Of a stretch of DNA of 64,000 nt, positions 35,595 to 58,965 are shown piece after piece. How positions within the stretch are numbered: the stretch's first letter is position 1; each line of letters opens with the position of its first letter. Made by a program: the position numbers and the translations under genes. The stretch comes from Escherichia phage HildyBeyeler. Location of the stretch: the sequence record MZ501074; one strand, given 5' to 3'. The notes beneath the pieces were generated by a model, which made no database searches, was not told the DNA's origin, and saw only the letters and a list, made by a program, of their open reading frames with translations.

Positions 35595-35765
35595 ATGAAA
35601 AACTTGATCGTCATTGGTGTTAACACTCGCGGTATTCGTACTACGAAAACTGTTAAAACTTCTAACGTTGCTGAGATCACTACGAACCCTAAAAAGTTTG
35701 ATTTCGCCAAAGTCTCAGCAGTTATGACAGAACAATCTTTTAACCAAGCGTTAGGAATGAAATAA
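35595..35765 (+). CDS. hypothetical small protein (56 aa)
   Basis: Promoter and GAGAGGAAG RBS; ATG overlaps next gene (TAATG); below the ORF-track cutoff. Confidence 0.5.
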   Translation: MKNLIVIGVNTRGIRTTKTVKTSNVAEITTNPKKFDFAKVSAVMTEQSFNQALGMK

Positions 35766-36208
35766 TGGGAGAGAATATTTTAGATGTTTTGCGTAGAGCT
35801 TTGCAGGATTCTAAGTTTAATGGTTCTGATAAAGAAGTCGCTAAAAGCTATCAGACCATAATCGGGGATCTTCAGCGTATTGATAAAGATTTCATCACTT
35901 CTGAACAATTTGTGTCTTATCTCAAAGCTCAACTAAAAAGCATTAACCAGATGAAAGCTAAACTTCATGGTCAAGATCTTGATAGTTATAGCTTGCAGTC
36001 CGCTCAGTATGAATACATTCTAAATAAGTGGTTGCAGGAGTATCTGCCTCCTCAGTTATCTGATACTGAGATTCGTAAATACTTTGCAGAATTAGTTAAG
36101 CTAAACCCTGGAATTACAAAAGGTATGCTGATGAAAGCGATTAAGGAAGAATTTCCTGGGCGTTATGATGGTGGTACTGCTGCTCAGATTGCTGGCGAAT
36201 TTAATTAA
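35765..36208 (+). CDS. GatB/YqeY-domain-like protein (147 aa)
   Basis: C-terminal KGMLMKAIKEEFPGRYDGGTAAQIAGEF resembles the YqeY domain. Confidence 0.45.
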   Translation: MGENILDVLRRALQDSKFNGSDKEVAKSYQTIIGDLQRIDKDFITSEQFVSYLKAQLKSINQMKAKLHGQDLDSYSLQSAQYEYILNKWLQEYLPPQLSDTEIRKYFAELVKLNPGITKGMLMKAIKEEFPGRYDGGTAAQIAGEFN

Positions 36209-36216
36209 AAATTTAT

Positions 36217-36245
36217 TTGCTAAATGCCTATAAATTCTGTATAAT
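36217..36245 (+). promoter_or_regulatory. sigma70 promoter (TTGCTA, 17 bp, TATAAT) at the head of the tRNA cluster
   Basis: Consensus hexamers plus ATTAATAAATTAGAGAA box; no ORF follows for about 900 nt. Confidence 0.7.
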
Positions 36246-36468
36246 ATATTAATAAATTAGAGAACAGCGGGCCGATTACGCTGAGTGCAGAATCCAAACC
36301 GGAGTGCATTGAATAGAGTCGGTGGGTTAGTTGTAAAACTAGTACACAGTGGGCGGCAATCCCGGTTAGTGGCTAGAACGTGTAAAATGGGGCGTCTGAA
36401 ACCTCTCCCCTAAACTCTTCTCTAGTTTATAAATAGTGGGGTGTGGAAATCACTTATGTAGTAACACT

Positions 36469-36540
36469 GCCGATCTAGTATAAACGGTATTATCAAGCCG
36501 TAACTGGTGGAAGATGTAGGTTCGAATCCTACGATCGGTA
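36469..36540 (+). other. tRNA-like minihelix element (7-bp acceptor-like stem plus T-arm; no anticodon arm found)
   Basis: GCCGATC at 36469-75 pairs with GATCGGT at 36533-39; GTAGG-TTCGAAT-CCTAC T-arm at 36516-32; interior does not fold into D and anticodon arms. Confidence 0.3.
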
Positions 36541-37041
36541 AGAACTGGATAACTGGTGCTTTTAACGTAAAAGCTTCCGAGGTTAGTTGCGCACTGCCTA
36601 AACCACGCGGTAGTTGGTTCCAGACTAACCAACCAGTCTGCTGAATAGTTTTATTACGATTTAACTATGTCCAGGCTAAAGAAGAACTTTAGAAGGTATT
36701 CTAGGTGGTGAAGTTTTTCCTCCATATCGGAGTAGTTTTTCAAGCTACCAACAAAGTGGGAAATGCTGACATGAGAGATGTCACTAATGGTGCACAATAG
36801 CACAGGTAATTCGCGATAACTCCTGTTGAGTAGCAGCAAAAGGCGGGAAGTCATGACCCCAAGCCTAACCGAGTCCTCAATATACCGCAGGACATAACCA
36901 CTAAGTCACCCTGACTTAAACTGGAAAATAATAGACGTTACTGTATTTTGTCTTGAAATACTTAATGAGTGAGACTTATGACTCTCCCGGTATCGTCTGT
37001 ATTTTTAAGAGTTTTTACGAGAGTTCTTAAAAATACTTAAA

Positions 37042-37116
37042 CGGGGTGTAGTCTAAGGGAGAGGCAGGAGTCTTCTAAATTCCTTTATGCAGGTTCGAAT
37101 CCTGTCACCTCGGCCA
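37042..37116 (+). tRNA. tRNA-Arg (anticodon UCU), CCA encoded
   Basis: Hand fold: acceptor CGGGGTG/CACCTCG, D-arm, anticodon loop CU-UCU-AA, T-arm GCAGG-TTCGAAT-CCTGT, G73, CCA. Confidence 0.75.
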
Positions 37117-37150
37117 ATTTTATTAACTGTAACTAAAACAAAGGAAATAT

Positions 37151-38098
37151 ATGTTTAATACTAAAAATATGAAAGAACTGACTTCTGAGCAAAAAGTAAT
37201 TCGCACTATTAAACGTTGGGGTATTGGTTCTGTAGTTGGTTTAGCAGGTTTAATCCTAGCTTTTAATTCATATACTATTGTTTCTGATGGTACAGTTAAA
37301 ACCCAAACATTTCTGGGTAAAGTAGATCCTAACCCAGTATTACCTGGTTTCCATCTTGTAAACCCATTTGCATCTTTCGATACTTTTAGTACAAAAGATA
37401 TTGCTGTAAAATTAGATAAACTTCAGGTTCCTAGCCAGGATAAGTTTAAATCCACTGTTGACCTGACTGTTATGTTGCAGTTTGATGGTTCTAAGGCACC
37501 GATCAACCGTATTAATGCAGGTACTCAGGATCAGGCGTTAGACAAATATGTTACTGAAAAATTACTGTCTACCATCCGTGAGTTTGGTAAGTCTGTACCT
37601 AAAGCACAAGATTTGTTTGATGCTAAAATTCAAGCACAATTACAAACTGCAATTCAACAGGAAGTTGAAGAGTATGCACGCCCTTATGGTTACACAGTTA
37701 AGCAAGTGTTCCTTCAGGATATTACATTGCCACCGGTAATTATGGAACAGGTACAGAATACCAAAGTTCGTGAAGAACAAGTTAATGCTGCGAAAGCTGA
37801 ATTGGCTCGTGTTGAACAAGAAGCACAGCAGAAGGTTAAACAAGCAGAAGCAGATCGTGAAGCTCGTAACAACCAAGCTATTGCAAACGAACGTGATGCA
37901 GATGCTAAACTGTATGCAGCTAAGAAAGAAGCCGAAGCTAACGCCGCTCTGCAACGTACTATTACTCCTGAGATGATTCGCTGGAAACAACTAGAAGTTG
38001 AAATGACTCGTGCTCAGAAGTATCAAGGTGGTGTGCCTCAGACTGTAGTAGGTACTGGTTACGATGGTCAAATGATCATGGATATGCGTAACAAGTAA
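37151..38098 (+). CDS. SPFH/band-7 (stomatin/prohibitin-like) membrane protein (315 aa)
   Basis: N-terminal TM helix, SPFH core, long Ala/Glu-rich coiled coil; terminator follows. Confidence 0.65.
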   Translation: MFNTKNMKELTSEQKVIRTIKRWGIGSVVGLAGLILAFNSYTIVSDGTVKTQTFLGKVDPNPVLPGFHLVNPFASFDTFSTKDIAVKLDKLQVPSQDKFKSTVDLTVMLQFDGSKAPINRINAGTQDQALDKYVTEKLLSTIREFGKSVPKAQDLFDAKIQAQLQTAIQQEVEEYARPYGYTVKQVFLQDITLPPVIMEQVQNTKVREEQVNAAKAELARVEQEAQQKVKQAEADREARNNQAIANERDADAKLYAAKKEAEANAALQRTITPEMIRWKQLEVEMTRAQKYQGGVPQTVVGTGYDGQMIMDMRNK

Positions 38099-38121
38099 TA
38101 GTTACACGTAATCTTCGAAGT

Positions 38122-38161
38122 AAGCCCTGTGTTCCCTGGAGAGCGCAGGGCTTTTCTGTTT
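38122..38161 (+). terminator. intrinsic terminator after the SPFH gene
   Basis: AGCCCTG...CAGGGCT stem followed by TTTCTGTTTT. Confidence 0.6.
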
Positions 38162-38324
38162 TAAGGTAGAGGATAAGTGTGTCTCTTTGGTCACTCAGCT
38201 ATGACAAATACTTTACACTATATCACATTGAAAATCAAGTGGGGATAACAATTTTGGGGTCTATCCACTTACCTGCTACCCTTAAGCATCCTGTTATTTT
38301 CCTCTAAAAAGTTAAAAAATTCAA

Positions 38325-38353
38325 TTGCTTGAATGCTAAATTCTCTGTATAAT
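38325..38353 (+). promoter_or_regulatory. sigma70 promoter (TTGCTT, 17 bp, TATAAT)
   Basis: Consensus hexamers plus ACTTATAAATTTGAGAGAGAGG box. Confidence 0.7.
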
Positions 38354-38385
38354 ATACTTATAAATTTGAGAGAGAGGAATCTAGT

Positions 38386-38904
38386 ATGACTGTTGATGAA
38401 CTAACAGAACATCTCTTATCTAGAGGGTTTGATACAGATAAGTATCATTGCTGGTTAAGTCCGGAAGGATGGCTAACAGTCCCGTTGTATGACTTCTCTG
38501 GGATGTTGAGAGGCTATCAGACTTATAATCCTTCTGCTCCAAAAGGTCATGGTAAGTGCCCCTTTGAAGCTAAATATTTTACTTATTCAACTACACAGTG
38601 TGTATGGGGATTAGAAACTCTCAATGGAGATGAAAAAGTAGTATTGATTGCTGAATCTGTATTTAAGGCAGTTGCGTTACATAACGCTGGTTATCCAGCC
38701 CTGGCAATGTTGGGTTCTTCCCCCGGAAAAGCATTGTTAAAGCAATTGAAATTATTACCTTTTAAATTGGTAGCTGTCGGAGATAATGATCCTGCGGGTG
38801 AAAAATTTGCTAGAAAATTAAACGGCTTTGTTTCTCCTGTAGATGTAGATGAGATGTCTACCGAAAACTTGAAAAATTTTCTTGCTATGAAGCTAAATTT
38901 CTAA
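38386..38904 (+). CDS. hypothetical protein, possible Toprim-like domain (172 aa)
   Basis: VVLIAESVFKAVAL...LVAVGDNDPAGEKFARKL; 3' end overlaps promoter 38882-38910. Confidence 0.4.
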   Translation: MTVDELTEHLLSRGFDTDKYHCWLSPEGWLTVPLYDFSGMLRGYQTYNPSAPKGHGKCPFEAKYFTYSTTQCVWGLETLNGDEKVVLIAESVFKAVALHNAGYPALAMLGSSPGKALLKQLKLLPFKLVAVGDNDPAGEKFARKLNGFVSPVDVDEMSTENLKNFLAMKLNF

Positions 38905-38910
38905 TATAAT
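38882..38910 (+). promoter_or_regulatory. sigma70 promoter (TTGCTA, 17 bp, TATAAT) overlapping the 3' end of CDS 38386-38904
   Basis: Consensus hexamers directly upstream of tRNA-Ser. Confidence 0.6.
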
Positions 38911-38924
38911 ATATTTATAAATTC

Positions 38925-39013
38925 GGAAGAATAGCATAACGGTATTGCAGCAGATTGCTAATCTGTCGGTTTGAAATATAGCCTTGTGGGTTCGATTCCC
39001 ACTTCTTCCGCCA
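38925..39013 (+). tRNA. tRNA-Ser (anticodon GCU), long variable arm, CCA encoded
   Basis: Acceptor GGAAGAA/TTCTTCC, anticodon loop UU-GCU-AA, long extra arm, T-arm GTGGG-TTCGATT-CCCAC. Confidence 0.75.
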
Positions 39014-39019
39014 AATTCT

Positions 39020-39097
39020 GGTTCTCAAGCTCATATGGTATGAGCACCCAGCTCATAACTGGAAGGTACGTAGGTTCGAATCCTCGGGGAGCCACCA
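39020..39097 (+). tRNA. tRNA-Met or Ile2 (anticodon CAU), CCA encoded
   Basis: Acceptor GGTTCTC/GGGAGCC with G-U pairs, D-stem GCTC/GAGC, anticodon loop CU-CAU-AA, TTCGAAT T-loop; T-stem imperfect. Confidence 0.6.
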
Positions 39098-39116
39098 AAT
39101 TAAATAAGGACAACTA

Positions 39117-39305
39117 ATGGAATTATTCATAGTTTCTGTTAAATTTGCACAAGATAGAGAACGTTCGGATGAGTTTAAACAAGGGTACAGACTAGTAAAG
39201 GCTACATCTGAACTCCATGCTATGGACAAAGTAGTAGACTATATGTATAATGTAGAAGATGTTTACTACGTCAATGCTTTAGAAGCCTCAAAAGTAATTG
39301 ACTAA
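39117..39305 (+). CDS. hypothetical protein (62 aa)
   Basis: AAGGA RBS. Confidence 0.45.
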   Translation: MELFIVSVKFAQDRERSDEFKQGYRLVKATSELHAMDKVVDYMYNVEDVYYVNALEASKVID

Positions 39306-39314
39306 GGAGACTAT

Positions 39315-39500
39315 ATGTCTAAGTTTCAAGAACTCAAGCAAGAGCTAGAAGAATGTGCCTGCCCTGAGTGTAGAGGAATTGGTGAAAGTTCTGATGCAGA
39401 AGCAGTGGATACTTTTTGCAATATCTGGGTTTGCCCAAATTGCAAGGGTACAGGTATTAATCCTAACTGTGGTATTTCTCTAGATATTGAAAGAGGATAA
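39315..39500 (+). CDS. small zinc-ribbon protein (61 aa)
   Basis: Two CxxC pairs (CACPEC, CPNCKG); AAGGAG RBS. Confidence 0.5.
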   Translation: MSKFQELKQELEECACPECRGIGESSDAEAVDTFCNIWVCPNCKGTGINPNCGISLDIERG

Positions 39501-39505
39501 TACCT

Positions 39506-39595
39506 GTGAAACTAAAAGATTATTATATTGGTTGGTTTGTGGGACTAGTAGTAGGATTTTCACTAGGCTATAATATGTATCAACTAATAAACTGA
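39506..39595 (+). CDS. small hydrophobic peptide (29 aa), GTG start
   Basis: AGAGGA RBS 7 nt before the GTG; predicted single TM helix; ends 7 nt before a tRNA. Confidence 0.35.
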   Translation: MKLKDYYIGWFVGLVVGFSLGYNMYQLIN

Positions 39596-39601
39596 TTACA
39601 T

Positions 39602-39678
39602 GGGGGTGTAATCGAATTGGCATAGGTACTGTACTTAAAATTCAGGTTTTGTGGGTTCGAATCCCACCACCCCTACCA
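39602..39678 (+). tRNA. tRNA with anticodon UAA (Leu-type) but short variable arm, CCA encoded
   Basis: Acceptor GGGGGTG/CACCCCT, anticodon arm CTGTA-CUUAAAA-TTCAG, T-arm GTGGG-TTCGAAT-CCCAC, A73. Confidence 0.55.
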
Positions 39679-39693
39679 AATTAAGGAAATAAG

Positions 39694-39861
39694 ATGTATA
39701 GACATCCACCTCCGCCAACACGTCGTTCTAGAGAAGTTATTCTCATGGAATTGACGAAAAACTTCAAGGCAACCCTTGAGGATAGAGACTTAGGTACAGA
39801 TGAAGACGTTGATTTTATCTGTAAACTATTAAAAATGAAACTGGAGAAGCAACATGGCTAA
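39694..39861 (+). CDS. hypothetical small protein (55 aa)
   Basis: AAGGAAATAAG RBS; stop overlaps the next start; below the ORF-track cutoff. Confidence 0.45.
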   Translation: MYRHPPPPTRRSREVILMELTKNFKATLEDRDLGTDEDVDFICKLLKMKLEKQHG

Positions 39862-40060
39862 TCCTGAAATTACCATGCAACGACTCATGACTAAAGGTAT
39901 GATATCCGAGGCAGGCATTGAACAAGAAGTAAAAAGTTATTACGAACAGATTAAGGGTATTATAGACTCTGCTAAAAACACAGGAGAAAAAGAACACGGT
40001 GCAGCAATTATGGCTATAACTCTTATTAGTCTAGACTTGGCAGAAGAATCTGGAGTTTAG
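39854..40060 (+). CDS. hypothetical protein (68 aa)
   Basis: ORF track. Confidence 0.45.
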   Translation: MANPEITMQRLMTKGMISEAGIEQEVKSYYEQIKGIIDSAKNTGEKEHGAAIMAITLISLDLAEESGV

Positions 40061-40090
40061 CTCCTCCAAACAGAATTTTTAAAAATGTAC

Positions 40091-40120
40091 TTGCCTTTTG
40101 CTTTAAATTTCTGGTATAAT
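40091..40120 (+). promoter_or_regulatory. sigma70 promoter (TTGCCT, 18 bp, TATAAT)
   Basis: Hexamers plus AGTTATATAAATTGATGAAGGAG box. Confidence 0.6.
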
Positions 40121-40150
40121 AGTTATATAAATTGATGAAGGAGTTAACGA

Positions 40151-40426
40151 ATGCAAAATCGTGTTATAGCAACTGGTATTGAAAGTGCAATCTGTAAATC
40201 CTGGGAAGGCTGGGAAGGTGAGATTGAATGGCTTTATTTCTACGATGTAGAACTTCTGCCGGAAATTAAAGCTAAATGTGTTGAAGCTGGCATGGCTCCA
40301 GATGCAAAAGCTGATATTGATATTTCAATGTCTGAACTTAAAGGTCGTGTAGTTACCGTTAGTAATGAGGGCGAAGAAGTTTTTGAACTTCCGTTCTCCT
40401 TAGCTGTCACTCCTAAGTTCGACTAA
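40151..40426 (+). CDS. hypothetical protein (91 aa)
   Basis: Promoter 40091-40120 and GAAGGAG RBS. Confidence 0.5.
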   Translation: MQNRVIATGIESAICKSWEGWEGEIEWLYFYDVELLPEIKAKCVEAGMAPDAKADIDISMSELKGRVVTVSNEGEEVFELPFSLAVTPKFD

Positions 40427-40434
40427 CTAATACA

Positions 40435-40473
40435 GCACTGAGCAAGTCCTTTAAAATTTGACTTGCTCAGTGC
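40435..40473 (+). repeat. perfect 14-bp inverted repeat (GCACTGAGCAAGTC / GACTTGCTCAGTGC) with an 11-nt spacer
   Basis: Arms at 40435-48 and 40460-73 are exact reverse complements; the 3' arm contains the -35 of promoter 40463-91. Confidence 0.8.
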
Positions 40474-40491
40474 CTTAAAACTTGGTATAAT
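40463..40491 (+). promoter_or_regulatory. sigma70 promoter (TTGCTC, 17 bp, TATAAT); -35 lies in the 3' arm of a 14-bp palindrome
   Basis: Hexamers at 40463-68 and 40486-91. Confidence 0.6.
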
Positions 40492-40625
40492 AGTTATCTA
40501 ATTTGGAAAGTTCTTTTTAAGGTAGTTCTTACTTTAGCAGAGTAAACTTTCGGCAGATGGTGGCAGCCACTTTACCGATATTCCATAGTCAGTGCCGCAA
40601 ACACTGGCTACCTTAAAGAGAATTT

Positions 40626-40713
40626 GGGCGTTTATTCCGTAAGTGGTAGCGGAGGGGATTGTAAATCCCTGGTCATTGCGACTCGAGTGGTTCGACTCCA
40701 TTAACGCCCACCA
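40626..40713 (+). tRNA. tRNA-Tyr (anticodon GUA), long variable arm, CCA encoded
   Basis: Acceptor GGGCGTT/AACGCCC, anticodon arm GGGGA-UUGUAAA-TCCCT, extra arm, TTCGACT T-loop. Confidence 0.65.
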
Positions 40714-40721
40714 AATTTAAT

Positions 40722-40796: not shown

Positions 40797-40804
40797 ATTT
40801 CTGC

Positions 40805-40887: not shown

Positions 40888-40962
40888 GCACCTTTAGCTG
40901 AGATGGATTAGCGCTTGCCTGAAGAGCTTGAGAGGTTGGATCGTTACCAACGGGGTGCACCA
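40888..40962 (+). tRNA. possible tRNA-Phe (anticodon GAA), CCA encoded; non-canonical T-loop
   Basis: Acceptor GCACCTT/GGGGTGC and D-stem GCTG/TAGC are clean; anticodon stem has two U-U mismatches; T-loop AUCGUUA. Confidence 0.4.
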
Positions 40963-41932: not shown

Positions 41933-42009
41933 GCGACCGGGGCTGGCTTGGTAATGGTACTCCCCTGTCACGGGAGGGAATGTGGGTTCAAATCCCATCG
42001 GTCGCGCCA
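41933..42009 (+). tRNA. tRNA-Asp (anticodon GUC), CCA encoded
   Basis: Acceptor GCGACCG/CGGTCGC, anticodon arm CTCCC-CUGUCAC-GGGAG, T-loop TTCAAAT. Confidence 0.7.
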
Positions 42010-42026
42010 GATAAGGTAGGTTAGCT

Positions 42027-42185
42027 ATGGAACGTAGGGAGTTTACTCCAGAAGAGATAGAGCAGATAAAAGAATCTGCTATGAAAAATGCTAGAATATC
42101 TCTGTCACTGGAAGGTATCATTATTAGTGATGTAAACTTTGAAAAAATCAAAGCCATAGCTGATGAACTGGAAAAAGTAATTTAA
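42027..42185 (+). CDS. hypothetical small protein (52 aa) between tRNA-Asp and tRNA-Lys
   Basis: AAGGTAGG RBS; sequence MERREFTPEEIEQIKESAMKNARISLSLEG...; below the ORF-track cutoff. Confidence 0.4.
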   Translation: MERREFTPEEIEQIKESAMKNARISLSLEGIIISDVNFEKIKAIADELEKVI

Positions 42186-42186
42186 T

Positions 42187-42262
42187 ACATCCATAGCTCA
42201 ATGGTTAGAGCTACCGCCTCTTAAGCGGAGGGTTCTAGGTTCAAGTCCTAGTGGGTGTACCA
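42187..42262 (+). tRNA. tRNA-Lys (anticodon CUU), CCA encoded
   Basis: Acceptor ACATCCA/TGGGTGT, D-stem GCTC/GAGC, anticodon loop CU-CUU-AA, T-arm CTAGG-TTCAAGT-CCTAG. Confidence 0.7.
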
Positions 42263-43093: not shown

Positions 43094-43669
43094 ATGGAAG
43101 GATTTAAACCAATACCCGAGTATCCAGAATACTTAGTATCTGAGAAGGGAGAAATATACTCCACTATCAGTAATAAATATTTAAAACCTACCATAAACGG
43201 GAGCGGCTATTACCACTTTGCAGTACGTGAAGATACTAATGAGTATAGATGGCTTCTGCTGCACAGAGTTATATGCAGGGTTTATGGTAATCTCCCCTCT
43301 TTAGATAGTGAAATGGAAGTAGATCATAATGATTGTAATAGGCTTAATATACTCCCTAGTAATTTAGTTGCCAGAGAGAAGAAAGATCATTACGATAAAA
43401 CTACACTGGAGAGAGGAAAAACTATAGGGGGCACTAGATGTATAGTCTGTAATAAGAGGATACACTCTGGTCGAGAATACTGCATAAATTGCAGTCCAGT
43501 TAAACAGACTAAATCCCCAGAGATTACCGCAGAACAGATAGAATATTGGGTATCAAAGTATTCCTGGACTAGAGCTGCAAAAGAGTTAAATTTATCTGAT
43601 AATGGTCTACGAAAACGGTATACTAAATTAACAGGTAAATCCCCAAAAGAAATTAAAAAATCAGGGTAA
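43094..43669 (+). CDS. HNH homing endonuclease (191 aa)
   Basis: HNH motif EVDHNDCNRLNILPSNL and zinc-ribbon CIVCNKRIHSGREYCINC; last 8 nt overlap the 5' end of tRNA-Pro. Confidence 0.75.
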   Translation: MEGFKPIPEYPEYLVSEKGEIYSTISNKYLKPTINGSGYYHFAVREDTNEYRWLLLHRVICRVYGNLPSLDSEMEVDHNDCNRLNILPSNLVAREKKDHYDKTTLERGKTIGGTRCIVCNKRIHSGREYCINCSPVKQTKSPEITAEQIEYWVSKYSWTRAAKELNLSDNGLRKRYTKLTGKSPKEIKKSG

Positions 43670-45103: not shown

Positions 45104-45198
45104 GGTAGGTCAATCCAACGGCTGGCGCTGGACTCCGACTTGAAATCGGTTGATCGTAGTGATACGGTGTAAGGGTTCGATCCCCTTACCTACCTCCA
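45104..45198 (+). tRNA. tRNA-Ser (anticodon UGA), long variable arm, CCA encoded
   Basis: Acceptor GGTAGGT/ACCTACC, anticodon arm CCGA-CUUGAAA-TCGG, long extra arm, T-arm AAGGG-TTCGATC-CCCTT. Confidence 0.6.
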
Positions 45199-46356: not shown

Positions 46357-46608
46357 ATGCACGTTTTTGAGTTTCGTAATAAAAGTACCAATAAACGAGT
46401 TATTGTTATTGGGGAAACATATCGAGCATATGAACAAACTGACGGCTCTGTTATCTTGAATGATGAGAAAGGGGGTTTTAGCTTTTATCCAGAAGAACCT
46501 TATGAAGAGTTTCGAAAACAATTTAACCTAGACTGGAGAAAGCATTTAAACACTGTTGCTTCATCTGTAGTACTGCCAACTACCAGTACTGTACTATCTA
46601 ATGGCTGA
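46357..46608 (+). CDS. hypothetical protein (83 aa)
   Basis: AAGGAAT RBS. Confidence 0.5.
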   Translation: MHVFEFRNKSTNKRVIVIGETYRAYEQTDGSVILNDEKGGFSFYPEEPYEEFRKQFNLDWRKHLNTVASSVVLPTTSTVLSNG

Positions 46609-46765
46609 TAACCTAAAAGTCAAGATCGACAAACAAAAGAAACGTGTAGAAGTAGAGATTGGTGAAGAACGTGTAGCCTTCACCTTTGAATTTCTACAAC
46701 AAATGGCAATGACAGTTATGACTGATAAGTCTCCTGTTATTGAAAAAGAAATCCCGTTGAAATAA
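46601..46765 (+). CDS. hypothetical small protein (54 aa)
   Basis: ATG overlaps the upstream stop (ATGGCTGA); hairpin follows; below the ORF-track cutoff. Confidence 0.4.
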   Translation: MADNLKVKIDKQKKRVEVEIGEERVAFTFEFLQQMAMTVMTDKSPVIEKEIPLK

Positions 46766-47415: not shown

Positions 47416-47491
47416 GCTTCGGTAGCTTAGCGATCTAAAGCACTCGGCTGATAACCGAGAGATCAGGGGTTTAAATCCCTCCCGGAGTACC
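47416..47491 (+). tRNA. tRNA-Ile (anticodon GAU), CCA encoded
   Basis: Acceptor GCTTCGG/CCGGAGT, D-stem GCTT/AAGC, anticodon arm CTCGG-CUGAUAA-CCGAG, T-loop TTTAAAT. Confidence 0.7.
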
Positions 47492-47510
47492 AAATCTAGG
47501 AATTAAGACT

Positions 47511-47594
47511 ATGCGTCCAGGAAAGTTTAAAAAAGCTAGTTGGTCTAAAGAGTACAAAGAATACTTACTTAGCCTAGTAAAACGTAATAGTTAG
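47511..47594 (+). CDS. hypothetical small peptide (27 aa) between tRNA-Ile and tRNA-Met
   Basis: AGGA RBS; 3' end overlaps the tRNA-Met 5' end by 2 nt. Confidence 0.25.
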
Positions 47595-47664
47595 TTGGCA
47601 GAGTGGTTATGCGCCTCCTTCATACGGAGCGACTACAGTGGTTCAAATCCACTACTAACTACCA
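47593..47664 (+). tRNA. tRNA-Met or Ile2 (anticodon CAU), CCA encoded
   Basis: Acceptor AGTTGGC/ACTAACT (one mismatch), anticodon loop UU-CAU-AC, T-arm AGTGG-TTCAAAT-CCACT; short D-arm. Confidence 0.55.
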
Positions 47665-47677: not shown

Positions 47678-48046
47678 ATGAAAGCGTATCAAAATCTTAA
47701 ATCTGGCGTAATTAATATTGTTCATAATAATCAGATTATTCAACTGTACTCTAAAGATGGTGAACTTAAACAAAAGGTTCTAGTTGAAGATCTAGATGGT
47801 ATCACACCTCATTTTGACCCAGAATCCTTTCGTGAAGTCAAAGTGGAAGTCGCCCCTCAAATTGAAGGTGGTCAACACCTAAATGTCAATGTGTTAAGTC
47901 GTGATCAGCTTTTGGATGCGCAGAAACATCCTGAAAAATACCCTCAATTAACTATCCGTGTTTCAGGGTACGCTGTGCGTTTTAACGCACTGACGCGTGA
48001 ACAGCAGAACGACGTTATTAGTCGTACATTTACTCAGGCGATGTAA
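47678..48046 (+). CDS. grcA: autonomous glycyl-radical cofactor (GrcA/YfiD-like), ~122 aa
   Basis: C-terminal glycyl-radical motif [31 protein letters not shown]; AGGAG RBS before 47678. Confidence 0.75.
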
Positions 48047-48127
48047 TGGGGCTTGGATACGGTTTCTACGAACTACGTAAGGTAGTCGAGCAAACTCCAT
48101 TTATCTCCCAAGTTTTAGGAGAAATGT

Positions 48128-48442
48128 GTGGATCGAGCATTAAGACGTCATCACCGGCAACGTGTAAAGAACAACCGCAAGAAGTATTGGACAGTCTTCC
48201 CACATGAAGAAAGCCCTAAACGGTTAGGTATTATCACTACTACTCCTTGTATCTGTTCTTGTTGGATGTGCGGGAACCCTCGCAAACACTTTAAGAATAG
48301 TAAAGCAGGGATGAAAACCTCGGAGATTAGGAAAATGGAAGCAATGATTACGGATATTTCAAATGATGAATTTGATGGCTTCGTAGGATTCGGGGAAGAT
48401 ATTAGCTCGGACTGTTTCGAAGATGAGCTCCCAGGTCTATGA
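48128..48442 (+). CDS. hypothetical Cys-rich protein (104 aa), GTG start
   Basis: AGGAG RBS 7 nt before the GTG; terminator follows. Confidence 0.45.
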   Translation: MDRALRRHHRQRVKNNRKKYWTVFPHEESPKRLGIITTTPCICSCWMCGNPRKHFKNSKAGMKTSEIRKMEAMITDISNDEFDGFVGFGEDISSDCFEDELPGL

Positions 48443-53282: not shown

Positions 53283-53876
53283 ATGGCTAATAAAAAAGAA
53301 GAAAAGACTAACCTGTTTCACTCCATTCGCCAATCTAACGAGTATACCTTTTTCTTTGATGAAGAACTTGGTCCGCCTGATGAATACCGTGATTTATCAA
53401 TGGTACTTATGCAGGCAAATGAGGACGACGAAATTAATCTGATGATTAATGGCCCTGGTGGCTATGTTGATACCGCTGCACAGTTATCTAACTTAATTGC
53501 CAATTGCCGTGGAACAGTTATAGGACATCTGATTGGTCCTAGTGCTTCTGCTTATTGCACAATTTTCCTATCCTGTCATAGATGGGTAGTACATCCACAT
53601 GCTACGCTAATGGGACACACGTTCTCTGGCGGATTCTGTGAGAAAGGTCAAGAAATCAAGAAAGCCTATGAATCTTACAACAAGTTTGTAGAAGATATGA
53701 TGCTAGATGTCTACTATCCGTTCTTCTCAATAGATGAAATCGACGAGATGGTAAAAGACAACAAAAATATCTATCTAGATAGCAAGGAAATTCATAAGCG
53801 TATTGAAATCTTGGCAAAATATCGATCTGAGCAATATAATAAAGCCCAGTTACCTCAATCCTGGGGGCACAACTAA
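53283..53876 (+). CDS. ClpP-like serine peptidase (197 aa)
   Basis: INGPGGYV...GHLIGPSASAYCTIF resembles the ClpP/S14 core; terminator follows. Confidence 0.5.
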   Translation: MANKKEEKTNLFHSIRQSNEYTFFFDEELGPPDEYRDLSMVLMQANEDDEINLMINGPGGYVDTAAQLSNLIANCRGTVIGHLIGPSASAYCTIFLSCHRWVVHPHATLMGHTFSGGFCEKGQEIKKAYESYNKFVEDMMLDVYYPFFSIDEIDEMVKDNKNIYLDSKEIHKRIEILAKYRSEQYNKAQLPQSWGHN

Positions 53877-53892
53877 GAGTAAGTAGTTTTAA

Positions 53893-53925
53893 GCCAGGGT
53901 TTAACGACCCTGGCCTTTCTTTTAT
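53893..53925 (+). terminator. intrinsic terminator after the ClpP-like gene
   Basis: GCCAGGGT-TTAACG-ACCCTGGC hairpin followed by CTTTCTTTT. Confidence 0.7.
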
Positions 53926-53986
53926 CTAAAATTCTTCTTGACAACGACATAATTTTGTGCTCCAAGTGTAACGTTTAAAAACCAAT

Positions 53987-54015
53987 TGAAATTTTCCTCC
54001 AAAATTAGTATAATG
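53987..54015 (+). promoter_or_regulatory. sigma70 promoter (TTGAAA, 17 bp, TATAAT) for the lysis genes
   Basis: Follows terminator 53893-53925; precedes the holin start. Confidence 0.55.
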
Positions 54016-54039
54016 GTACTGGTTAGAGGAGGTTACAAA

Positions 54040-54696
54040 TTGGAAAAGTTCTTACAATTATTAACAGTACTGCTCCAAGAAGCGAAAGACCCAGCATCGC
54101 TTCTTAAACGTCTGCTAACTATCTTAGTTGCTGTCATTATTTTCTTATTTGTTAGTAATACTAGTGAGGTGATGTCATTCTTAAAGACTTTCTCCACGTC
54201 TGCGGTTCTACAGGATGTTCAAACTCAAAGGATAAGTAATTTTCCTAACGTAGCTAGAGAAAAGAGCATGGTGCTTTTTTCCCAAACGGGTGCGGATGCT
54301 GTTTTTGTAGTCAAGTATAAACCCGATGCCATTAATGATTATTCTAACATTATTGCATGGGAAAGCAATGCGCAATTAGATAGGGCTGACTTGGCTGATA
54401 AAGCGGTAAATAAGACGTCTGAGCTATATAGACGTCACTTAGACGGCTTTAACTACGCATCGGATTTAAGTGTAAAAGTAAATAAATACATGGGGTTAAA
54501 TATACCTGCGTTTAAGAACGTTACTTTTAATTACATATACACTTGTCCGTATTTCAATCTAAACAATATCTATGCTGGATATATTGGTATTGCTTGGAAA
54601 GATAATCCTGTAGATACAGCTGATTCTGAACAGTTCAAGGAATATTTAGCAAAGCTCTGTTCCCCACAACAGAGATCTTTAGGTAGGTCAATATGA
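54040..54696 (+). CDS. hol: putative holin (~218 aa), TTG start
   Basis: AGGAGG RBS 7 nt before the TTG; N-terminal TM segment; immediately upstream of and coupled to the endolysin gene. Confidence 0.5.
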   Translation: MEKFLQLLTVLLQEAKDPASLLKRLLTILVAVIIFLFVSNTSEVMSFLKTFSTSAVLQDVQTQRISNFPNVAREKSMVLFSQTGADAVFVVKYKPDAINDYSNIIAWESNAQLDRADLADKAVNKTSELYRRHLDGFNYASDLSVKVNKYMGLNIPAFKNVTFNYIYTCPYFNLNNIYAGYIGIAWKDNPVDTADSEQFKEYLAKLCSPQQRSLGRSI

Positions 54697-55106
54697 GTTT
54701 TAAATTTAGTAAAAGAAGTTTAGATAGATTAAAGGGTGTTCATCCAGATTTAGTAAAAGTAACTCATAGAGCTTTAGAATTAAGCCCATATGATTTTACT
54801 ATTACAGAAGGATTACGTTCCTTAGAACAAAGCGCCCAAAATATTAAGAATGGAACCTCGTTTTTAAAAGACCCGAGCAAGTCAAAACACGTACAAGGGC
54901 TGGCTGTTGACTTTGCTCCTCTTAAAAATGGGGAGATTGATTGGAATGATTTAGAATCATTCAAATTAGTGGCAGATGCCTTCTTTAAGGCAGCAGAAGA
55001 GCTAGGAGTAAAGATTAGATGGGGTGGTGATTGGAACCAGAACGGAAGTTATAAGGATGAAATCCAACGTGGTACTTTTGATGGCCCACATATAGAATTG
55101 ATTTAA
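54693..55106 (+). CDS. lys: endolysin, L-alanyl-D-glutamate peptidase (137 aa)
   Basis: M15-family zinc-peptidase signature (HVQGLAVDF, WGGDW); 137 aa as in T5 endolysin. Confidence 0.75.
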   Translation: MSFKFSKRSLDRLKGVHPDLVKVTHRALELSPYDFTITEGLRSLEQSAQNIKNGTSFLKDPSKSKHVQGLAVDFAPLKNGEIDWNDLESFKLVADAFFKAAEELGVKIRWGGDWNQNGSYKDEIQRGTFDGPHIELI

Positions 55107-55181
55107 GTAAAATACGGCGGGAATACTCCCGCCTTTTTAGGCAAAGGGGGCTTTAATAACTTTTGAAGATAGGAGAAAGCC

Positions 55182-55598
55182 ATGTTTGCAGAACTATTCA
55201 CTACGATGCTGCTAGGTATCTGGAAAATAAGTCTAGTAGTATTCGTTTTAATAATAGTCTTTACTATCCTTGCACTAACTACCAGAAATATCTTATTAAT
55301 AAAGATTACTCATGGACTAGAGTATATAATTATGGGTTCATTCGGCGTTTGTAAATGCAATTGCCATAGAGATACGAAATATTGTTGGTTATGGATGGAA
55401 CTAGAGAATCCTATATCCATAGCTTTGGCTGTTTCATTCGGTATGATTCTTATGGCCCTTACTCTAGCATTAATACCTTTGATGTTAGCTGGGGGAGTTA
55501 CAGCGTATTTCACCCTTTTATCCCCGATACTTATGTACTCAATTTACCCAATAACTATGTATCTAGTTAGGAAAAGATTTATACATGCAGTAGATTAA
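55182..55598 (+). CDS. hypothetical multi-pass membrane protein (138 aa)
   Basis: AGGAGAAAG RBS; several hydrophobic helices. Confidence 0.5.
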   Translation: MFAELFTTMLLGIWKISLVVFVLIIVFTILALTTRNILLIKITHGLEYIIMGSFGVCKCNCHRDTKYCWLWMELENPISIALAVSFGMILMALTLALIPLMLAGGVTAYFTLLSPILMYSIYPITMYLVRKRFIHAVD

Positions 55599-55611
55599 GA
55601 TAAAAAAGTAG

Positions 55612-55640
55612 TTGACTTTTAGCCCTAGTTATTATATAAT
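55612..55640 (+). promoter_or_regulatory. sigma70 promoter (TTGACT, 17 bp, TATAAT)
   Basis: Hexamers plus ATATACATAAATTAGTTAAGAGAGG box. Confidence 0.65.
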
Positions 55641-55673
55641 ATATACATAAATTAGTTAAGAGAGGTATATATT

Positions 55674-56081
55674 ATGTCTGATCGTTTCTATACTCAAATG
55701 GCGGAACATTATAACATGGCTCCATATGAGTTGAACATCGCATTACGTGACCTCGATTCACCAGAGCGTAAAAAACTTGAGAAGAAGGCAGGAACTACTA
55801 TGTCTAAAGGCAAAAAGTTAACTCGTCTTGATCTTAATAAAATTTTAACTGAACTTTTGGGTACTGATATTGAAGGTGCTAAATTACCGCTTCTTGTACT
55901 AGAGACTATGATTAAAAAGGTCAAAAATAAAGAATATAAGAAGGTAGAAGTCCCAGAAGGCAGATTAAAGGCTCCTTATCAGGAAGCATTAACCGAGTGT
56001 TTGGGTGTAAATCTTGATCTGAGCACCGCAACCGTAAAAACTATGAAAAACTTCTTAGAGGCCATTAATAACTATGAGTAA
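55674..56081 (+). CDS. hypothetical protein (135 aa)
   Basis: Promoter 55612-55640 and GAGAGG RBS. Confidence 0.55.
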   Translation: MSDRFYTQMAEHYNMAPYELNIALRDLDSPERKKLEKKAGTTMSKGKKLTRLDLNKILTELLGTDIEGAKLPLLVLETMIKKVKNKEYKKVEVPEGRLKAPYQEALTECLGVNLDLSTATVKTMKNFLEAINNYE

Positions 56082-56364
56082 ATTAGTATATCTATTAAAA
56101 GGTTCCACGTGTCGTCCTTGTGCTCTTTTCGAGCCAGTATTTGATAAAGTAGTCAATGAGTATAATTTGGAAGTCCATAAAGAGACTGATAATACAGAAT
56201 TAATGCAGAAATTTGGCGTACGCCAAGTTCCTGTAGTAGTTCTGGCGGATCGCTTACCTAATGGTCGAGTAGAAGCTAATCATATTTTGATTGGACGTCA
56301 GCTTCGTAAAGAAACTATGCACGAAGCTATTAAAAATTTCCTGGATGATAATCCAGAAGGTTAA
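56074..56364 (+). CDS. thioredoxin-fold protein (96 aa)
   Basis: CxxC redox motif STCRPCALF; terminator follows. Confidence 0.5.
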   Translation: MSKLVYLLKGSTCRPCALFEPVFDKVVNEYNLEVHKETDNTELMQKFGVRQVPVVVLADRLPNGRVEANHILIGRQLRKETMHEAIKNFLDDNPEG

Positions 56365-56370
56365 TAAACC

Positions 56371-56403
56371 AAGCCTGATCTTAGCGGATCAGGCTTTTAT
56401 TTT
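56371..56403 (+). terminator. intrinsic terminator after the thioredoxin-fold gene
   Basis: AGCCTGATC-TTAGCG-GATCAGGCT hairpin followed by TTTATTTT. Confidence 0.7.
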
Positions 56404-56405
56404 AC

Positions 56406-56434
56406 TTGCTTTTTGCTAAAAATTTTGGTATAAT
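56406..56434 (+). promoter_or_regulatory. sigma70 promoter (TTGCTT, 17 bp, TATAAT)
   Basis: Follows terminator 56371-56403; downstream ACTTATATAAATTGATAAGAAGG box. Confidence 0.65.
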
Positions 56435-56491
56435 ACTTATATAAATTGATAAGAAGGCTATCTACGCACTACAAAAAATAGGAGTATTCCA

Positions 56492-56869
56492 ATGAACTAT
56501 GCATATCTAATTATTAATAATAACGTAGTTTGTGGTACTCGCGCTGTTGAGATGGGTATTACAGAAGAAGAGTATAAGTCACTTCCAGAAAAGGAACAAC
56601 AATATTATGTTGAAGAAGCTGCTTGGGAGTATGCTGAGGTTTATCCCGAACAACGTGAAGATCGCGTTACTATTGTTGTTTCTTTGGGGCTGGTTGGCTG
56701 TGATACCGAAGTTGATACAGACCTAGAGACTTTAGAGGAGTGGGAAGAGTTAGATATTTCAGCTAAAAACTCCTTAATCCGTGAAGCCTTTTGGGAAGCT
56801 GTAGATTGCCACGTAGTATTTGAGCCTAATGATGAAGAGGCTGAAAAACATACTAACCATTGGAGATAA
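56492..56869 (+). CDS. hypothetical acidic protein (125 aa)
   Basis: Promoter and AGGAG RBS. Confidence 0.5.
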   Translation: MNYAYLIINNNVVCGTRAVEMGITEEEYKSLPEKEQQYYVEEAAWEYAEVYPEQREDRVTIVVSLGLVGCDTEVDTDLETLEEWEELDISAKNSLIREAFWEAVDCHVVFEPNDEEAEKHTNHWR

Positions 56870-56873
56870 TTAA

Positions 56874-57119
56874 ATGTTAGCAGAGCGAGCAAAACGTTTA
56901 GCTAGGGTTAATAGAGCTGCTCTTCTCAAGAGCAGGAAGAAATCATATAAGTATGTTAAAAGACGGATTATAGCTTCTGTAGAGGCTGGAGGTTCTTATG
57001 TGCAGTTTAACCGTGACGAAATTAGTTATGAAGCTATAAAAGCCCTCAATAAAGATGGTTATACTCTCAAACTATCTAATGAGTATGGCACAACTATTTT
57101 AACTGTTATTTGGGAATAA
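56874..57119 (+). CDS. hypothetical protein (81 aa)
   Basis: ORF track. Confidence 0.45.
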   Translation: MLAERAKRLARVNRAALLKSRKKSYKYVKRRIIASVEAGGSYVQFNRDEISYEAIKALNKDGYTLKLSNEYGTTILTVIWE

Positions 57120-57121
57120 TT

Positions 57122-57973
57122 ATGAAAAAAGAATTTAATGTACATAAAACTCTAGTAGTGCCAGATGATGCCAACTTGTTTTTCGTTGGTGATATTCATG
57201 GGTGCAACGATTTGCTAGAAGATGCACTACAATTAGCTGGCTATAACGGCAAGAAAGATTGCGTTGTATGCGTAGGGGATTTAATTGACCGAGGCACGCA
57301 GAACCTACAAGTTTTAGCCAAATTCCTGTATAATCCACGCTTTATCAGTGTCCGTGGTAATCATGACCAATTTATGATTGTGGGAGATTGGGCTAACTGG
57401 ATGTATAACGGTGGTATGTGGGCTATGAATGAACTAGATGCAGATACCATTAAAAATATTGCCGAAGACATGGCTGAAAAAATGCCAGTATTCCTAACTG
57501 TTAAACATCGTGGCAAGAAGTATGGTGTTGTTCACGGTGCGGTTCCCTACAGGCATAAAGGGGATAATAACATATCTAAAATCCCAAATTGGGACACTCT
57601 TATTCTGGAGGCAGAGCAGGCCAAAGGGCTTGATTTAGCAGATATTATAGACGATGCTCTATGGGATAGGGATGTGATCCAAGATGTATTTTCCCATATG
57701 TCTGAGGATGCTGACCACCCGTATTTTCAAAGATATGCTGGACTTCCAGAAAACTTAATTAATCACATTCCTAAGGTAGAAGGAGTAGAATTCGTATTTC
57801 ACGGGCATACTGGAGTTCCTTACCCAATATTATATAAGAACCGTGTCTATCTTGATACTGGCGGTGTTTTCAACGGGCAGTTGACGGTTGCGCAGGTTAA
57901 TGATGAAACTGGCAAAATCACCACATTTACCACAGACAAAAATGATAGCTGCGGTGTACAGAGGGTTCTTTAA
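57122..57973 (+). CDS. Ser/Thr protein phosphatase, calcineurin-like (~283 aa)
   Basis: Metallophosphoesterase motifs GDIHG, GDLIDRG, GNHD. Confidence 0.75.
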   Translation: MKKEFNVHKTLVVPDDANLFFVGDIHGCNDLLEDALQLAGYNGKKDCVVCVGDLIDRGTQNLQVLAKFLYNPRFISVRGNHDQFMIVGDWANWMYNGGMWAMNELDADTIKNIAEDMAEKMPVFLTVKHRGKKYGVVHGAVPYRHKGDNNISKIPNWDTLILEAEQAKGLDLADIIDDALWDRDVIQDVFSHMSEDADHPYFQRYAGLPENLINHIPKVEGVEFVFHGHTGVPYPILYKNRVYLDTGGVFNGQLTVAQVNDETGKITTFTTDKNDSCGVQRVL

Positions 57974-58260
57974 TGAATGATAGAATGAAAGAAGTACAAG
58001 AAGAGTTACGAGCAATGCGTATTGATGCCCTTCGTTGGAGGGCATTAGTTAATGCTTTCGTAAAAGGAGATACCGGAGTAATATATTCTGGAATAGCAGT
58101 CAATTTTTGTTTTAATTCTCCTGCTGAAATAGAGATAGAAACAAGGCTTACTACCTTCCTTAATGAGGTAGACCTTAAGGAAGGAGAGACTCCCGAGGAG
58201 TTTAAAACTAGAGTATTAACTACCTGGGTTGATAATTTAATACAAAAAAGGAGTAAGTGA
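57973..58260 (+). CDS. hypothetical protein (95 aa)
   Basis: ORF track; coupled to flanking genes. Confidence 0.45.
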   Translation: MNDRMKEVQEELRAMRIDALRWRALVNAFVKGDTGVIYSGIAVNFCFNSPAEIEIETRLTTFLNEVDLKEGETPEEFKTRVLTTWVDNLIQKRSK

Positions 58261-58850
58261 TGAGGGTTAAATTCTGGTCAGACTTGCACTTAGACCACCC
58301 TGGAGCACTACGTTTCCGTCCGTGGTTTAAGAACATGAAAGAGCACGATGAGTATATTCTAGATACTTTGTCCAAGCATATTGGTAAACGAACAAAACTT
58401 ATTTTGCTAGGAGATATTGCAGTAGGTCGTGAAGGTCTGGCCAAATTAAAGTCGGTTATCCACAATGTCCCTAATCAACTCATTATGGGTAATCATGATG
58501 CGGAGCGTCAAGGACTGAGTATTAGGGACTTAGCGGAAGTTTATGACGATATTCAAGCTCTAGGCAAACAGACTGGAGGTGGCAAAAAGTTTTGGCTATC
58601 TCATTGCCCTTTGCACCCCAATGAGCTTCGGGGCAAATTAAATATTCACGGACACGTACATGCTACTTCTATACGTGACCCTCGTTACATCAATGTCTCA
58701 TTTGAAATGAGCAAAACTCCTATTCCTCTAGAAGATATTGTATCAGGTAAGTTTACTAGCTATGATAGAGTAGTTAATTGTACTACTGGCGAAGTATTAC
58801 AAATAGGGGAAGATGTAGCTGCTGTATTACGTGGCGATATAAATGTCTAA
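58260..58850 (+). CDS. calcineurin-like metallophosphoesterase (~196 aa)
   Basis: DLHLDHPG, LGDIAVG, GNHD motifs; AGGAG RBS before the ATG at 58260. Confidence 0.6.
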   Translation: MRVKFWSDLHLDHPGALRFRPWFKNMKEHDEYILDTLSKHIGKRTKLILLGDIAVGREGLAKLKSVIHNVPNQLIMGNHDAERQGLSIRDLAEVYDDIQALGKQTGGGKKFWLSHCPLHPNELRGKLNIHGHVHATSIRDPRYINVSFEMSKTPIPLEDIVSGKFTSYDRVVNCTTGEVLQIGEDVAAVLRGDINV

Positions 58851-58965
58851 GTATATAGCTGGGGCTATAATTAAACGAGTCATACAAGCAGTAGCAATAC
58901 TTATAATCATTTGTATTGCTATTGGTACAGGACTAGGCATTTTAATTAAAAGTTTTATTTGCTAA
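58843..58965 (+). CDS. small hydrophobic peptide (40 aa)
   Basis: ATG overlaps the upstream stop; predicted single TM helix; 3' end overlaps the -35 of promoter 58959-58987. Confidence 0.3.
   Translation: MSKYIAGAIIKRVIQAVAILIIICIAIGTGLGILIKSFIC

Follow-up and report, generated by a model that had tools for sequence, protein, structure and literature searches.

Do the short spacers of a phage tRNA cluster hold protein-coding genes, and does any of these small genes act against the host? We took up this question for Escherichia phage HildyBeyeler, of which a stretch of 64,000 nucleotides (nt; sequence record MZ501074), here called the window, was analysed. An earlier examination of the letters alone, the sequence-only reading, had listed seven small open reading frames (ORFs) between positions 35,595 and 58,965, several of them wedged between tRNAs, and had remarked that phage proteins of this size and placement often serve host takeover or act against defence. 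In the joint explanation that we consider best, and hold to be probable, five of these ORFs (c1 to c5) and, less firmly, a sixth (c7) are real accessory genes, and one of the five, c4, is an orphan inhibitor of Fic proteins used against host defence. All seven ORFs were found in the sequence exactly where they had been placed, with the lengths and start codons assigned to them, and ARAGORN coordinates agree that c4 lies between tRNA-Asp and tRNA-Lys and c6 between tRNA-Ile and tRNA-Met. The ORFs, with lengths in amino acids (aa), and the block that holds c4 are:

35595-35765, + strand: c1, 56 aa, ortholog of T5.082 (T5 ORF077), DUF7616 / phrog_5077
39506-39595, + strand: c2, 29 aa, GTG start, predicted membrane micro-protein with a glycine zipper
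39694-39861, + strand: c3, 55 aa, ortholog of T5.074, phrog_7716 (E=2.6e-43)
42027-42185, + strand: c4, 52 aa, predicted two-helix protein, phrog_19286, between tRNA-Asp (41933-42009) and tRNA-Lys(CUU) (42187-42262)
41933-42262, + strand: the block tRNA-Asp / c4 / tRNA-Lys(CUU)
46601-46765, + strand: c5, 54 aa, ortholog of T5.059, DUF7293 / phrog_5919
47511-47594, + strand: c6, 27 aa, T5.057 in T5, phrog_17200, between tRNA-Ile (47416-47492) and tRNA-Met (47589-47664)
58843-58965, + strand: c7, 40 aa, predicted single-pass membrane micro-protein, phrog_21849

The window belongs to a T5-like siphovirus and takes in its tRNA-rich region. Over the 13.5 kb around the ORFs, identity is 98.5% to Salmonella phage Tennessee and 93-95% to many Tequintavirus and Epseptimavirus genomes, for example Escherichia phage IrisVonRoten, and ARAGORN identified 21 tRNA genes between 36468 and 47664, without exception on the + strand. 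The listed ORFs belong to this region as accessory genes, save c7, which lies ~11 kb beyond it after a phosphoesterase gene. As genes they are not new, and the novelty implied by their description as lying below the ORF-track cutoff did not hold: the exact peptides of all seven are already deposited as predicted proteins, each named 'hypothetical protein', and four of the seven are numbered genes of T5 (NC_005859; c1 is T5.082, c3 T5.074, c5 T5.059 and c6 T5.057). The list is in itself ordinary, made up of genes already annotated in T5 and its relatives. What we add is a sorting of coding status into five confirmed genes (c1 to c5), one that is probable (c7) and one that is doubtful and as a gene unproven (c6), together with support for the 55-aa start of c3 and the observation that many annotations miss c2.

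Six of the seven ORFs matched a Pfam DUF or PHROG family, the exception being c2, for which neither library yielded a match; the matches to PHROG hidden Markov models 7716 (c3), 19286 (c4), 17200 (c6) and 21849 (c7) were full-length, with E values from 2.6e-43 to 4.3e-21, and none of these four PHROGs has an assigned function. The family libraries searched gave no hint of function for c1, c2, c3, c5 or c7, a literature search for the four T5 locus tags returned no paper, and an Rfam search found no match beneath any of the seven.

To judge coding status, we compared ~25 T5-like loci from IMG/VR, two annotated GenBank relatives, the T5 reference and seven metagenomic contigs. Each variable site-allele was counted once and the synonymous share was set against a neutral expectation of ~0.26; the off-frames of the tested ORFs showed the opposite pattern to the coding frames, and longer neighbouring genes, taken as comparison values, had ratios of nonsynonymous to synonymous polymorphism (pN/pS) of 0.12-0.21. 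Shine-Dalgarno (SD) pairing energies were read against a median of -5.6 kcal/mol for the 46 + strand ORFs in the window that begin with ATG and reach 100 aa, and -2.0 kcal/mol for all ATGs. A further set of metagenomic loci (L026-L038), reached through a neighbouring 115-aa gene, was tried as a deep-conservation sample and set aside, as it held no homolog of any candidate. The conservation and Ka/Ks check that the sequence-only reading had proposed revealed purifying selection among ~25-30 relatives for c1 to c5; for c6 and c7 the ORFs are kept but the synonymous excess is not significant. We assign gene status to c1 to c5 and, as probable, to c7 because of this synonymous excess or a low ratio of nonsynonymous to synonymous substitution rates (dN/dS), the retention of c7 through structural variants, the presence of SD sites or coupling, annotation in T5, family membership and deposition.

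The three confirmed genes shared with T5 are the plainest cases. The c1 protein is 100% identical to the T5.082 product and matches PF24592 (DUF7616) with E=2.9e-31 (107.7 bits, cutoff 27). Its variable sites are 14 synonymous against 4 nonsynonymous (P=1e-5), its SD pairing is -6.0 kcal/mol, and its stop shares 1 nt with the start of a YqeY-like gene (35765-36208). It is the first gene behind an early promoter, which T5 annotates immediately upstream of T5.082. c3, intact in 25 of 26 relatives, has an SD pairing of -6.1 kcal/mol and overlaps the start of the next gene (39854-40060, a T5.073 homolog) by 8 nt at its 3' end. In total it shows 35 synonymous against 12 nonsynonymous variable sites, divided into 23 against 7 for codons 18-55 (P=8e-9) and 12 against 5 for codons 2-17 (P=6e-4). 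Because codons 2-17 alone show a synonymous excess, the 55-aa start is favoured over the 38-aa form of some records. c5 is intact in all 22 relatives examined for it, matches PF23965 (DUF7293) with E=7.8e-39 (132 bits, cutoff 27) and shows 46 synonymous against 28 nonsynonymous sites (P=3e-11). It has no SD site; 8 nt at its start are shared with the upstream gene (46357-46608), an arrangement for translational coupling, and its stop lies 8 nt ahead of a tRNA-Thr. The products of c1, c3 and c5 would be small soluble proteins.

c2 and c7 had been called hydrophobic, and they are; from sequence features, both most likely insert into the inner membrane, where they would stand as single helices, c2 as a glycine-zipper oligomer. 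The zipper of c2 reads G9xxxG13xxxG17xxxG21. The gene ends 6 nt ahead of tRNA-Leu(UAA), has an SD pairing of -5.8 kcal/mol and differs among relatives at nine synonymous sites and no nonsynonymous one (P=8e-6). It is present in 122 phage records, and most of those listed leave it unannotated. T5 lacks c2 and has the HNH endonuclease gene hegA in its slot. Small glycine-zipper or single-pass membrane peptides occur in phages and bacteria, and c2 (GxxxGxxxGxxxG) and c7 resemble them in size and composition, without a sequence family link.

The surroundings of c2 vary as well. The segment from tRNA-Ser(GCU) to c3 (38925-39861 in the window; the same slot in loci L003-L025) has at least four alternative contents, of 96, ~391, ~681 and 820 nt; the 820-nt form carries the T5 hegA endonuclease, and c2 is confined to the ~681-nt form. 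Just upstream of c2, a 61-aa ORF (39315-39500) has variable sites distributed 6/6/24 over the codon positions, a strong coding periodicity. It has weak matches of zinc-ribbon or CxxC type, and we found no support for the label 'antitermination protein Q' that several records give it.

c7 has no SD site, and its start overlaps a metallophosphoesterase gene (58257-58850) by 8 nt. The peptide has a hydropathy of 2.9 and a 20-residue hydrophobic core with basic flanks, and its DNA was found in 212 phage records in a DNA search of the phage collection. Three structural states were seen. Ten loci have the 40-aa form; two (L046, L047) have an 8-nt deletion and a new in-frame ATG directly after the upstream stop, giving 34 aa; and two more (L050, L051), whose DNA is ~65% identical, have a diverged 33-aa transmembrane ORF that still has the start/stop overlap and a TGLG motif, while stops abound in the other two frames. 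Substitutions in c7 are 9 synonymous against 14 nonsynonymous (pN/pS 0.51, P=0.12, not significant), most of the amino acid changes being conservative (I/V, A/V, A/T, I/L). An early-promoter-like TATAAT lies downstream of the c7 stop.

c6 starts 18 nt past tRNA-Ile, and its last 6 nt, including the stop codon, lie within tRNA-Met; the 84 nt and the 6-nt overlap are the same in T5.057. The SD pairing is a moderate -4.2 kcal/mol. The ORF is intact in all 26 relatives that have the spacer, with 6 synonymous against 7 nonsynonymous changes (P=0.08) and variable sites distributed 3/4/6 over the codon positions. The 96-nt spacer is either at least 94% identical or altogether replaced or absent among relatives, and divergence is shallow for this reason. 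A metagenome scan for tRNA-Ile...tRNA-Met pairs added seven loci, too few to settle the status of c6.

Could c6, and possibly c7, then not be genes at all? On this account c6 is a chance frame in the precursor spacer between tRNA-Ile and tRNA-Met, conserved through recent common ancestry and the constraints on the flanking tRNAs, and c7 is an AT-rich intergenic stretch before the next promoter. We take this alternative seriously, while holding it to fall somewhat short of probable. It draws on the counts for c6, where the chance that 13 neutral changes leave no stop is 0.49, on the all-or-nothing spacer, on several curated records that leave c6 unannotated, and on the counts for c7, which is unannotated in slur09. 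Other points weigh against gene status: neither c6 nor c7 showed codon periodicity among relatives, the literature search found no expression data for any of the seven ORFs, and RNase P cleavage at tRNA-Met would remove the c6 stop and leave a non-stop fragment. For c6 there is on the other side the intact frame in every relative with the spacer, the invariance of its first nine residues and a synonymous share about twice the neutral one; the spacer RNA, with a fold z of +0.19 and no Rfam match, has no unusual structure that would put an alternative function at hand. For c7, the ORF, the hydrophobic helix and TGLG persist in the ~65%-identical copy, in which the other frames are closed, and the deletion in L046 and L047 is paired with a new ATG. 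We thus regard c7 as a probable gene and c6 as what may be merely an open frame in a tRNA spacer.

The small genes would be translated from the same + strand transcripts that bear the tRNAs. That each ORF has a ribosome-binding site or a coupled start or stop proved accurate, with SD sites for c1 to c4, a moderate one for c6 and 8-nt coupled starts for c5 and c7. c1 to c4 would initiate at their own SD sites, c5 and c7 by termination-reinitiation at the overlap with the upstream gene. The timing of their expression we infer. In a promoter and terminator scan of 35.4-48.2 kb, which leaves unscored the weak -35 of T5-type early promoters, sites were no more frequent than in shuffled sequence, and we gave the scan no weight. 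When all + strand ORFs of 25-70 aa at 35-60 kb were screened, c1, c3 and c5 and two neighbours slightly above 60 aa (39315-39500 and 39854-40060) stood out, and no further ORF below 60 aa did.

Turning to c4, we found a gene fitted closely into its tRNA block: it starts 17 nt past tRNA-Asp, stops 1 nt ahead of tRNA-Lys(CUU) and has an SD pairing of -9.1 kcal/mol. As c4 was too invariant in the first set of relatives, diverged copies were added from Erwinia phage KEY, Pectobacterium phage My1, Salmonella phages bombadil and STWB21 and Escherichia phage KookSpook. Pairs of copies give dN/dS values of 0.06-0.24, and in the distant pairs dS is close to saturation or past it. The gene was found in 66 phage records. 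Homologs in other phages always have their start no more than ~20 nt behind a tRNA 3' end, as seen in five phages, and leave 0-4 nt between their stop and another tRNA; the flanking tRNAs vary (Glu/Phe in KEY, Ala downstream in bombadil, Asp/Lys in My1 and STWB21). If the tRNAs on either side are processed, a c4 mRNA of ~180 nt would be freed, with a 17-nt leader that carries the SD site. Relative to T5, in which the slot measures 25 nt, c4 and tRNA-Lys(CUU) form an insertion of ~255 nt that is present in 5 of 23 relatives, and the slot occurs in three states. We considered whether the filler of ~181 nt between tRNA-Asp and tRNA-Lys(CUU) in two loci (L004, 9718-9898; L006, 9718-9900) might be a decayed c4; the sequences are unrelated and have no convincing ORF, and this was rejected.

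Two of the diverged copies have features of their own. In KookSpook, the tRNA that follows the c4 homolog (L081, 1061-1134) is homologous to the tRNA-Lys(CUU) of the window and has the anticodon CCU (Arg) and several stem changes; either its anticodon has been switched or the tRNA is decaying. In bombadil (L080, 724-1041), a 105-aa protein has the c4 domain as its C-terminal half and a cysteine-rich N-terminal half bearing several CxxC-like pairs, and is a fused variant of the putative Fic inhibitor.

Outside phages of this kind, a profile search with c4 and a second homolog search identified a family of 67-71 aa proteins in E. coli, Proteus, Klebsiella, Serratia, Yersinia and Pantoea, ~50% identical to c4 across its C-terminal three quarters. 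In each of the 14 loci of full-length bacterial members that we viewed, a Fic gene runs towards the small gene, and the convergent pair shares 4-8 nt; the Fic partner has 337 aa in most of them. These pairs lie on IncFII plasmids, on a conjugative element, in integrase islands and in defence islands with KwaB or GmrSD. Within the phage collection, this Fic protein occurs in P2-like temperate phages only, at 37% identity. In one of these, STYP1, the Fic gene is again convergent and overlapping with a small ORF, of 65 aa, and the pair sits between the portal gene and replication gene A; this ORF product matched the c4 family profile by hhalign (97.5%, E=5e-12) and keeps S-F-S-L-E-G. Bacterial and P2-like members together, all 15 full-length homologs viewed outside T5-like phages adjoin a Fic gene. 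The Fic partner has a canonical active site of the form HxFx(D/E)GNGRxxR, here HPF[E/Q]DGNGRxxR; the internal inhibitory motif [ST]xxxE[GN] was looked for in it and not found. It scored 1e-27 to 1e-32 against the PADLOC model PDC-S04 and 1e-13 against SoFic, and these models and the islands make this Fic clade a candidate defence gene. In one Klebsiella contig (L069, 3213-5514), the 337-aa Fic paired with a c4-like gene adjoins a SoFic-type Fic (Fic_N, Fic, SoFic-like_C), such that two different Fic enzymes stand side by side within one integrase-bounded island.

The best conserved part of the family is a motif with a known role. Class-I Fic toxins are inhibited in trans by small proteins with [S/T]xxxE[G/N], the motif of the Fic inhibitory helix (PMC5033356), and c4 carries it as S25-L-S-L-E29-G30. 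Among 28 members of the family, N21, S25 and G30 never vary, A22 and E29 are at least 90% conserved, and N21-A22-x-x-S25-x-x-x-E29-G30 is the best conserved block; within T5-like phages, E16-S17-A18, N21-A22-R23, S25 and L28-E29-G30 are all invariant. In an AlphaFold (AF2) model with a predicted local distance difference test score of 91, residues 8-28 and 35-51 form helices joined by a loop, and S25-x-x-x-E29-G30 lies at the end of helix 1. A six-frame translation of the window held no Fic motif, and no T5-like phage record contained this Fic, which leaves c4 an orphan.

We therefore propose, as the most likely reading, that c4 counters host defence as an orphan inhibitor of Fic, a proposal drawn from the motif and the gene neighbourhood, with the family link and the selection as observed; binding, inhibition and the defence role of the Fic clade we infer. 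c4, made early in infection, would bind a Fic toxin of the host, a plasmid or a prophage, and the glutamate of its motif would enter the Fic active site and block the use of ATP. The toxin would then stay off when the cell's own unstable inhibitor fails, and Fic-mediated abortive infection would be averted. More broadly, and only tentatively, c4 may represent a family of phage-borne anti-Fic proteins, in which the convergent, overlapping genes for a 65-71 aa protein and a ~337-aa Fic make up a toxin-antitoxin defence that is widespread on enterobacterial plasmids, conjugative elements, defence islands and P2-like prophages, and a subset of T5-like phages overcomes it with a captured antitoxin gene lodged among its tRNA genes. 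The searched literature contained no description of a phage-borne Fic inhibitor of this kind. The suggestion of a role in host takeover or anti-defence thus gained support for c4, through the homology to Fic modules, the motif and the orphan state; nothing found for c1, c2, c3, c5 or c7 bears on it, and c6 is not established as a gene.

Comparison with the class-I antitoxins VbhA (PDB 3SHG, 3ZC7) and EcFicA/YhfG brings out both likeness and difference. Like them, c4 is small and, as predicted, helical and has [S/T]xxxE[G/N] preceded by N-A, and its relatives are encoded beside a Fic protein without an internal inhibitory helix. Unlike them, c4 itself has no Fic neighbour, and its C-terminal half differs, reading ISDxxFxKI... 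against LEPDP.... By BLASTP, c4 and the deposited VbhA share 42% identity over 26 aa (E=0.005), motif aligned with motif, and a narrow c4 profile aligned to the VbhA family by hhalign with 68% probability (E=4.6e-5). We did not adopt membership in the VbhA family, as a broad profile weakened the link and Pfam membership failed. Searches of the PDB with c4 by sequence and by profile found nothing, and a fold search with the model gave generic matches only. We call c4 FicA-like in action and not a member of the FicA family because of the convergent gene order and the failed VbhA/YhfG membership.

Several of these findings weigh against a Fic inhibitor. c4 had no hit to Pfam VbhA (PF18495) or YhfG (PF10832) at E<=1, one relative of c4 came no nearer to YhfG than E=0.026, below the cutoff, and the broad c4 profile matched the VbhA family with a probability of 3.8%. 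Classical FicA-FicT operons are co-directional with the antitoxin upstream, whereas the pairs of c4 relatives and Fic are convergent and overlapping, an order that could reflect another relation to Fic, for example that of a target mimic or regulator. Two bacterial members that are divergent or truncated, P0019 and the 34-aa P0021, have no recognisable Fic neighbour (two further ones are found in other phages). The defence role of the Fic clade is that of a candidate only, and c4 is present in only ~1/10 of T5-like genomes.

A different reading accepts c4 as real and related to the Fic-associated small proteins, and holds that it does not inhibit a host Fic and has some other target, a phage-internal role or the status of passenger cargo on a mobile tRNA cassette. 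We judge this unlikely. The behaviour of c4 and tRNA-Lys(CUU) as an insertion/deletion cassette speaks for it, as do the homologs that always abut tRNA genes, and different ones; so do the position of c4 outside the VbhA and YhfG families with no specific fold match, the convergent rather than operonic order of the bacterial pairs, and the N-terminal third of c4, which is unlike that of the bacterial proteins. Yet c4 is under strong purifying selection in phages from four host genera, the residues that phage and bacterial members have conserved in common coincide exactly with the Fic-inhibitory motif, and every one of the 15 full-length non-T5 homologs viewed sits on a Fic gene that lacks an inhibitory helix of its own. 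Fic defence is also reported to act on T5 (PMC12249575).

The proposal that c4 inhibits a Fic protein has two instructive parallels. The Fic defence protein Sofic, reported to give strong protection against T5, is neutralised by an adjacent 47-aa protein (PMC12249575). The pair, Sofic-AS1 of E. coli H397, resembles the c4 relatives and their partner in that a Fic implicated in phage defence is held in check by a small neighbour, AS1; the likeness of AS1 to c4 is one of description. Unlike the c4-associated Fic, Sofic is of class II: it carries an inhibitory helix at its N terminus and a domain at its C terminus.

The second parallel is Dmd of phage T4, a phage antitoxin mimic that replaces a labile host antitoxin and silences toxin-based abortive infection; its target is an RNase. 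Both Dmd and c4 are small orphan proteins of a lytic phage. They differ in that Dmd is unrelated in sequence to host antitoxins, whereas c4 has a homolog in the host-side partner and presumably targets an AMP-transferase.

Fic AMP-transferases have reportedly been counted of late among anti-phage defences. A conserved small partner with a classical inhibitory motif offers a testable model for the silencing of this clade of Fic enzymes; its orphan copy in the phage is a candidate anti-defence protein. If the reading of c4 is true, it would illustrate that the tRNA clusters of large lytic phages can hold counter-defence genes in short gaps between tRNAs.

That the small genes are mainly by-products of a mosaic, homing-endonuclease-driven turnover of the tRNA region, selfish or neutral fillers kept by linkage to tRNAs and endonuclease sites, would suit the polymorphic slots of c2 (at least four contents, with hegA in T5) and c4 (three states), the HNH endonuclease at 43094-43669 that has no counterpart in relatives and the several HNH endonuclease genes interleaved with tRNAs in T5, but is quite improbable, because dN/dS values of 0-0.24 over dozens of substitutions, and SD sites and coupled starts that are kept, are unexpected for neutral fillers.

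The endonuclease gene just mentioned encodes 191 aa of HNH_3/NUMOD4 homing-endonuclease type and stands just upstream of tRNA-Pro; it is absent from the ~25 relatives fetched and appears to be a recent insertion. Rfam pointed to three tRNA-like elements that ARAGORN had missed, at 39020-39094 (38.2 bits), 40888-40959 (33.4 bits) and 45104-45194 (38.3 bits, tRNA-Sec model). Relatives have tRNA-Met/Ile2(CAU) and tRNA-Phe genes in the places of the first two; at the place of the third, T5 and IrisVonRoten have tRNA-Ser genes or stable RNAs. The ARAGORN tRNA-Ser at 36468-36541 has the unusual anticodon ACT, is labelled a pseudo-tRNA in Tennessee and lies within the stable RNA 'RNAX' in T5. Lastly, a 53-aa ORF at 48046-48207, annotated as a coding sequence in relatives, has variable sites distributed 16/3/5, mainly at the first codon position; this annotated frame is probably wrong, because its first position is the third position of an overlapping frame (48128-48442).

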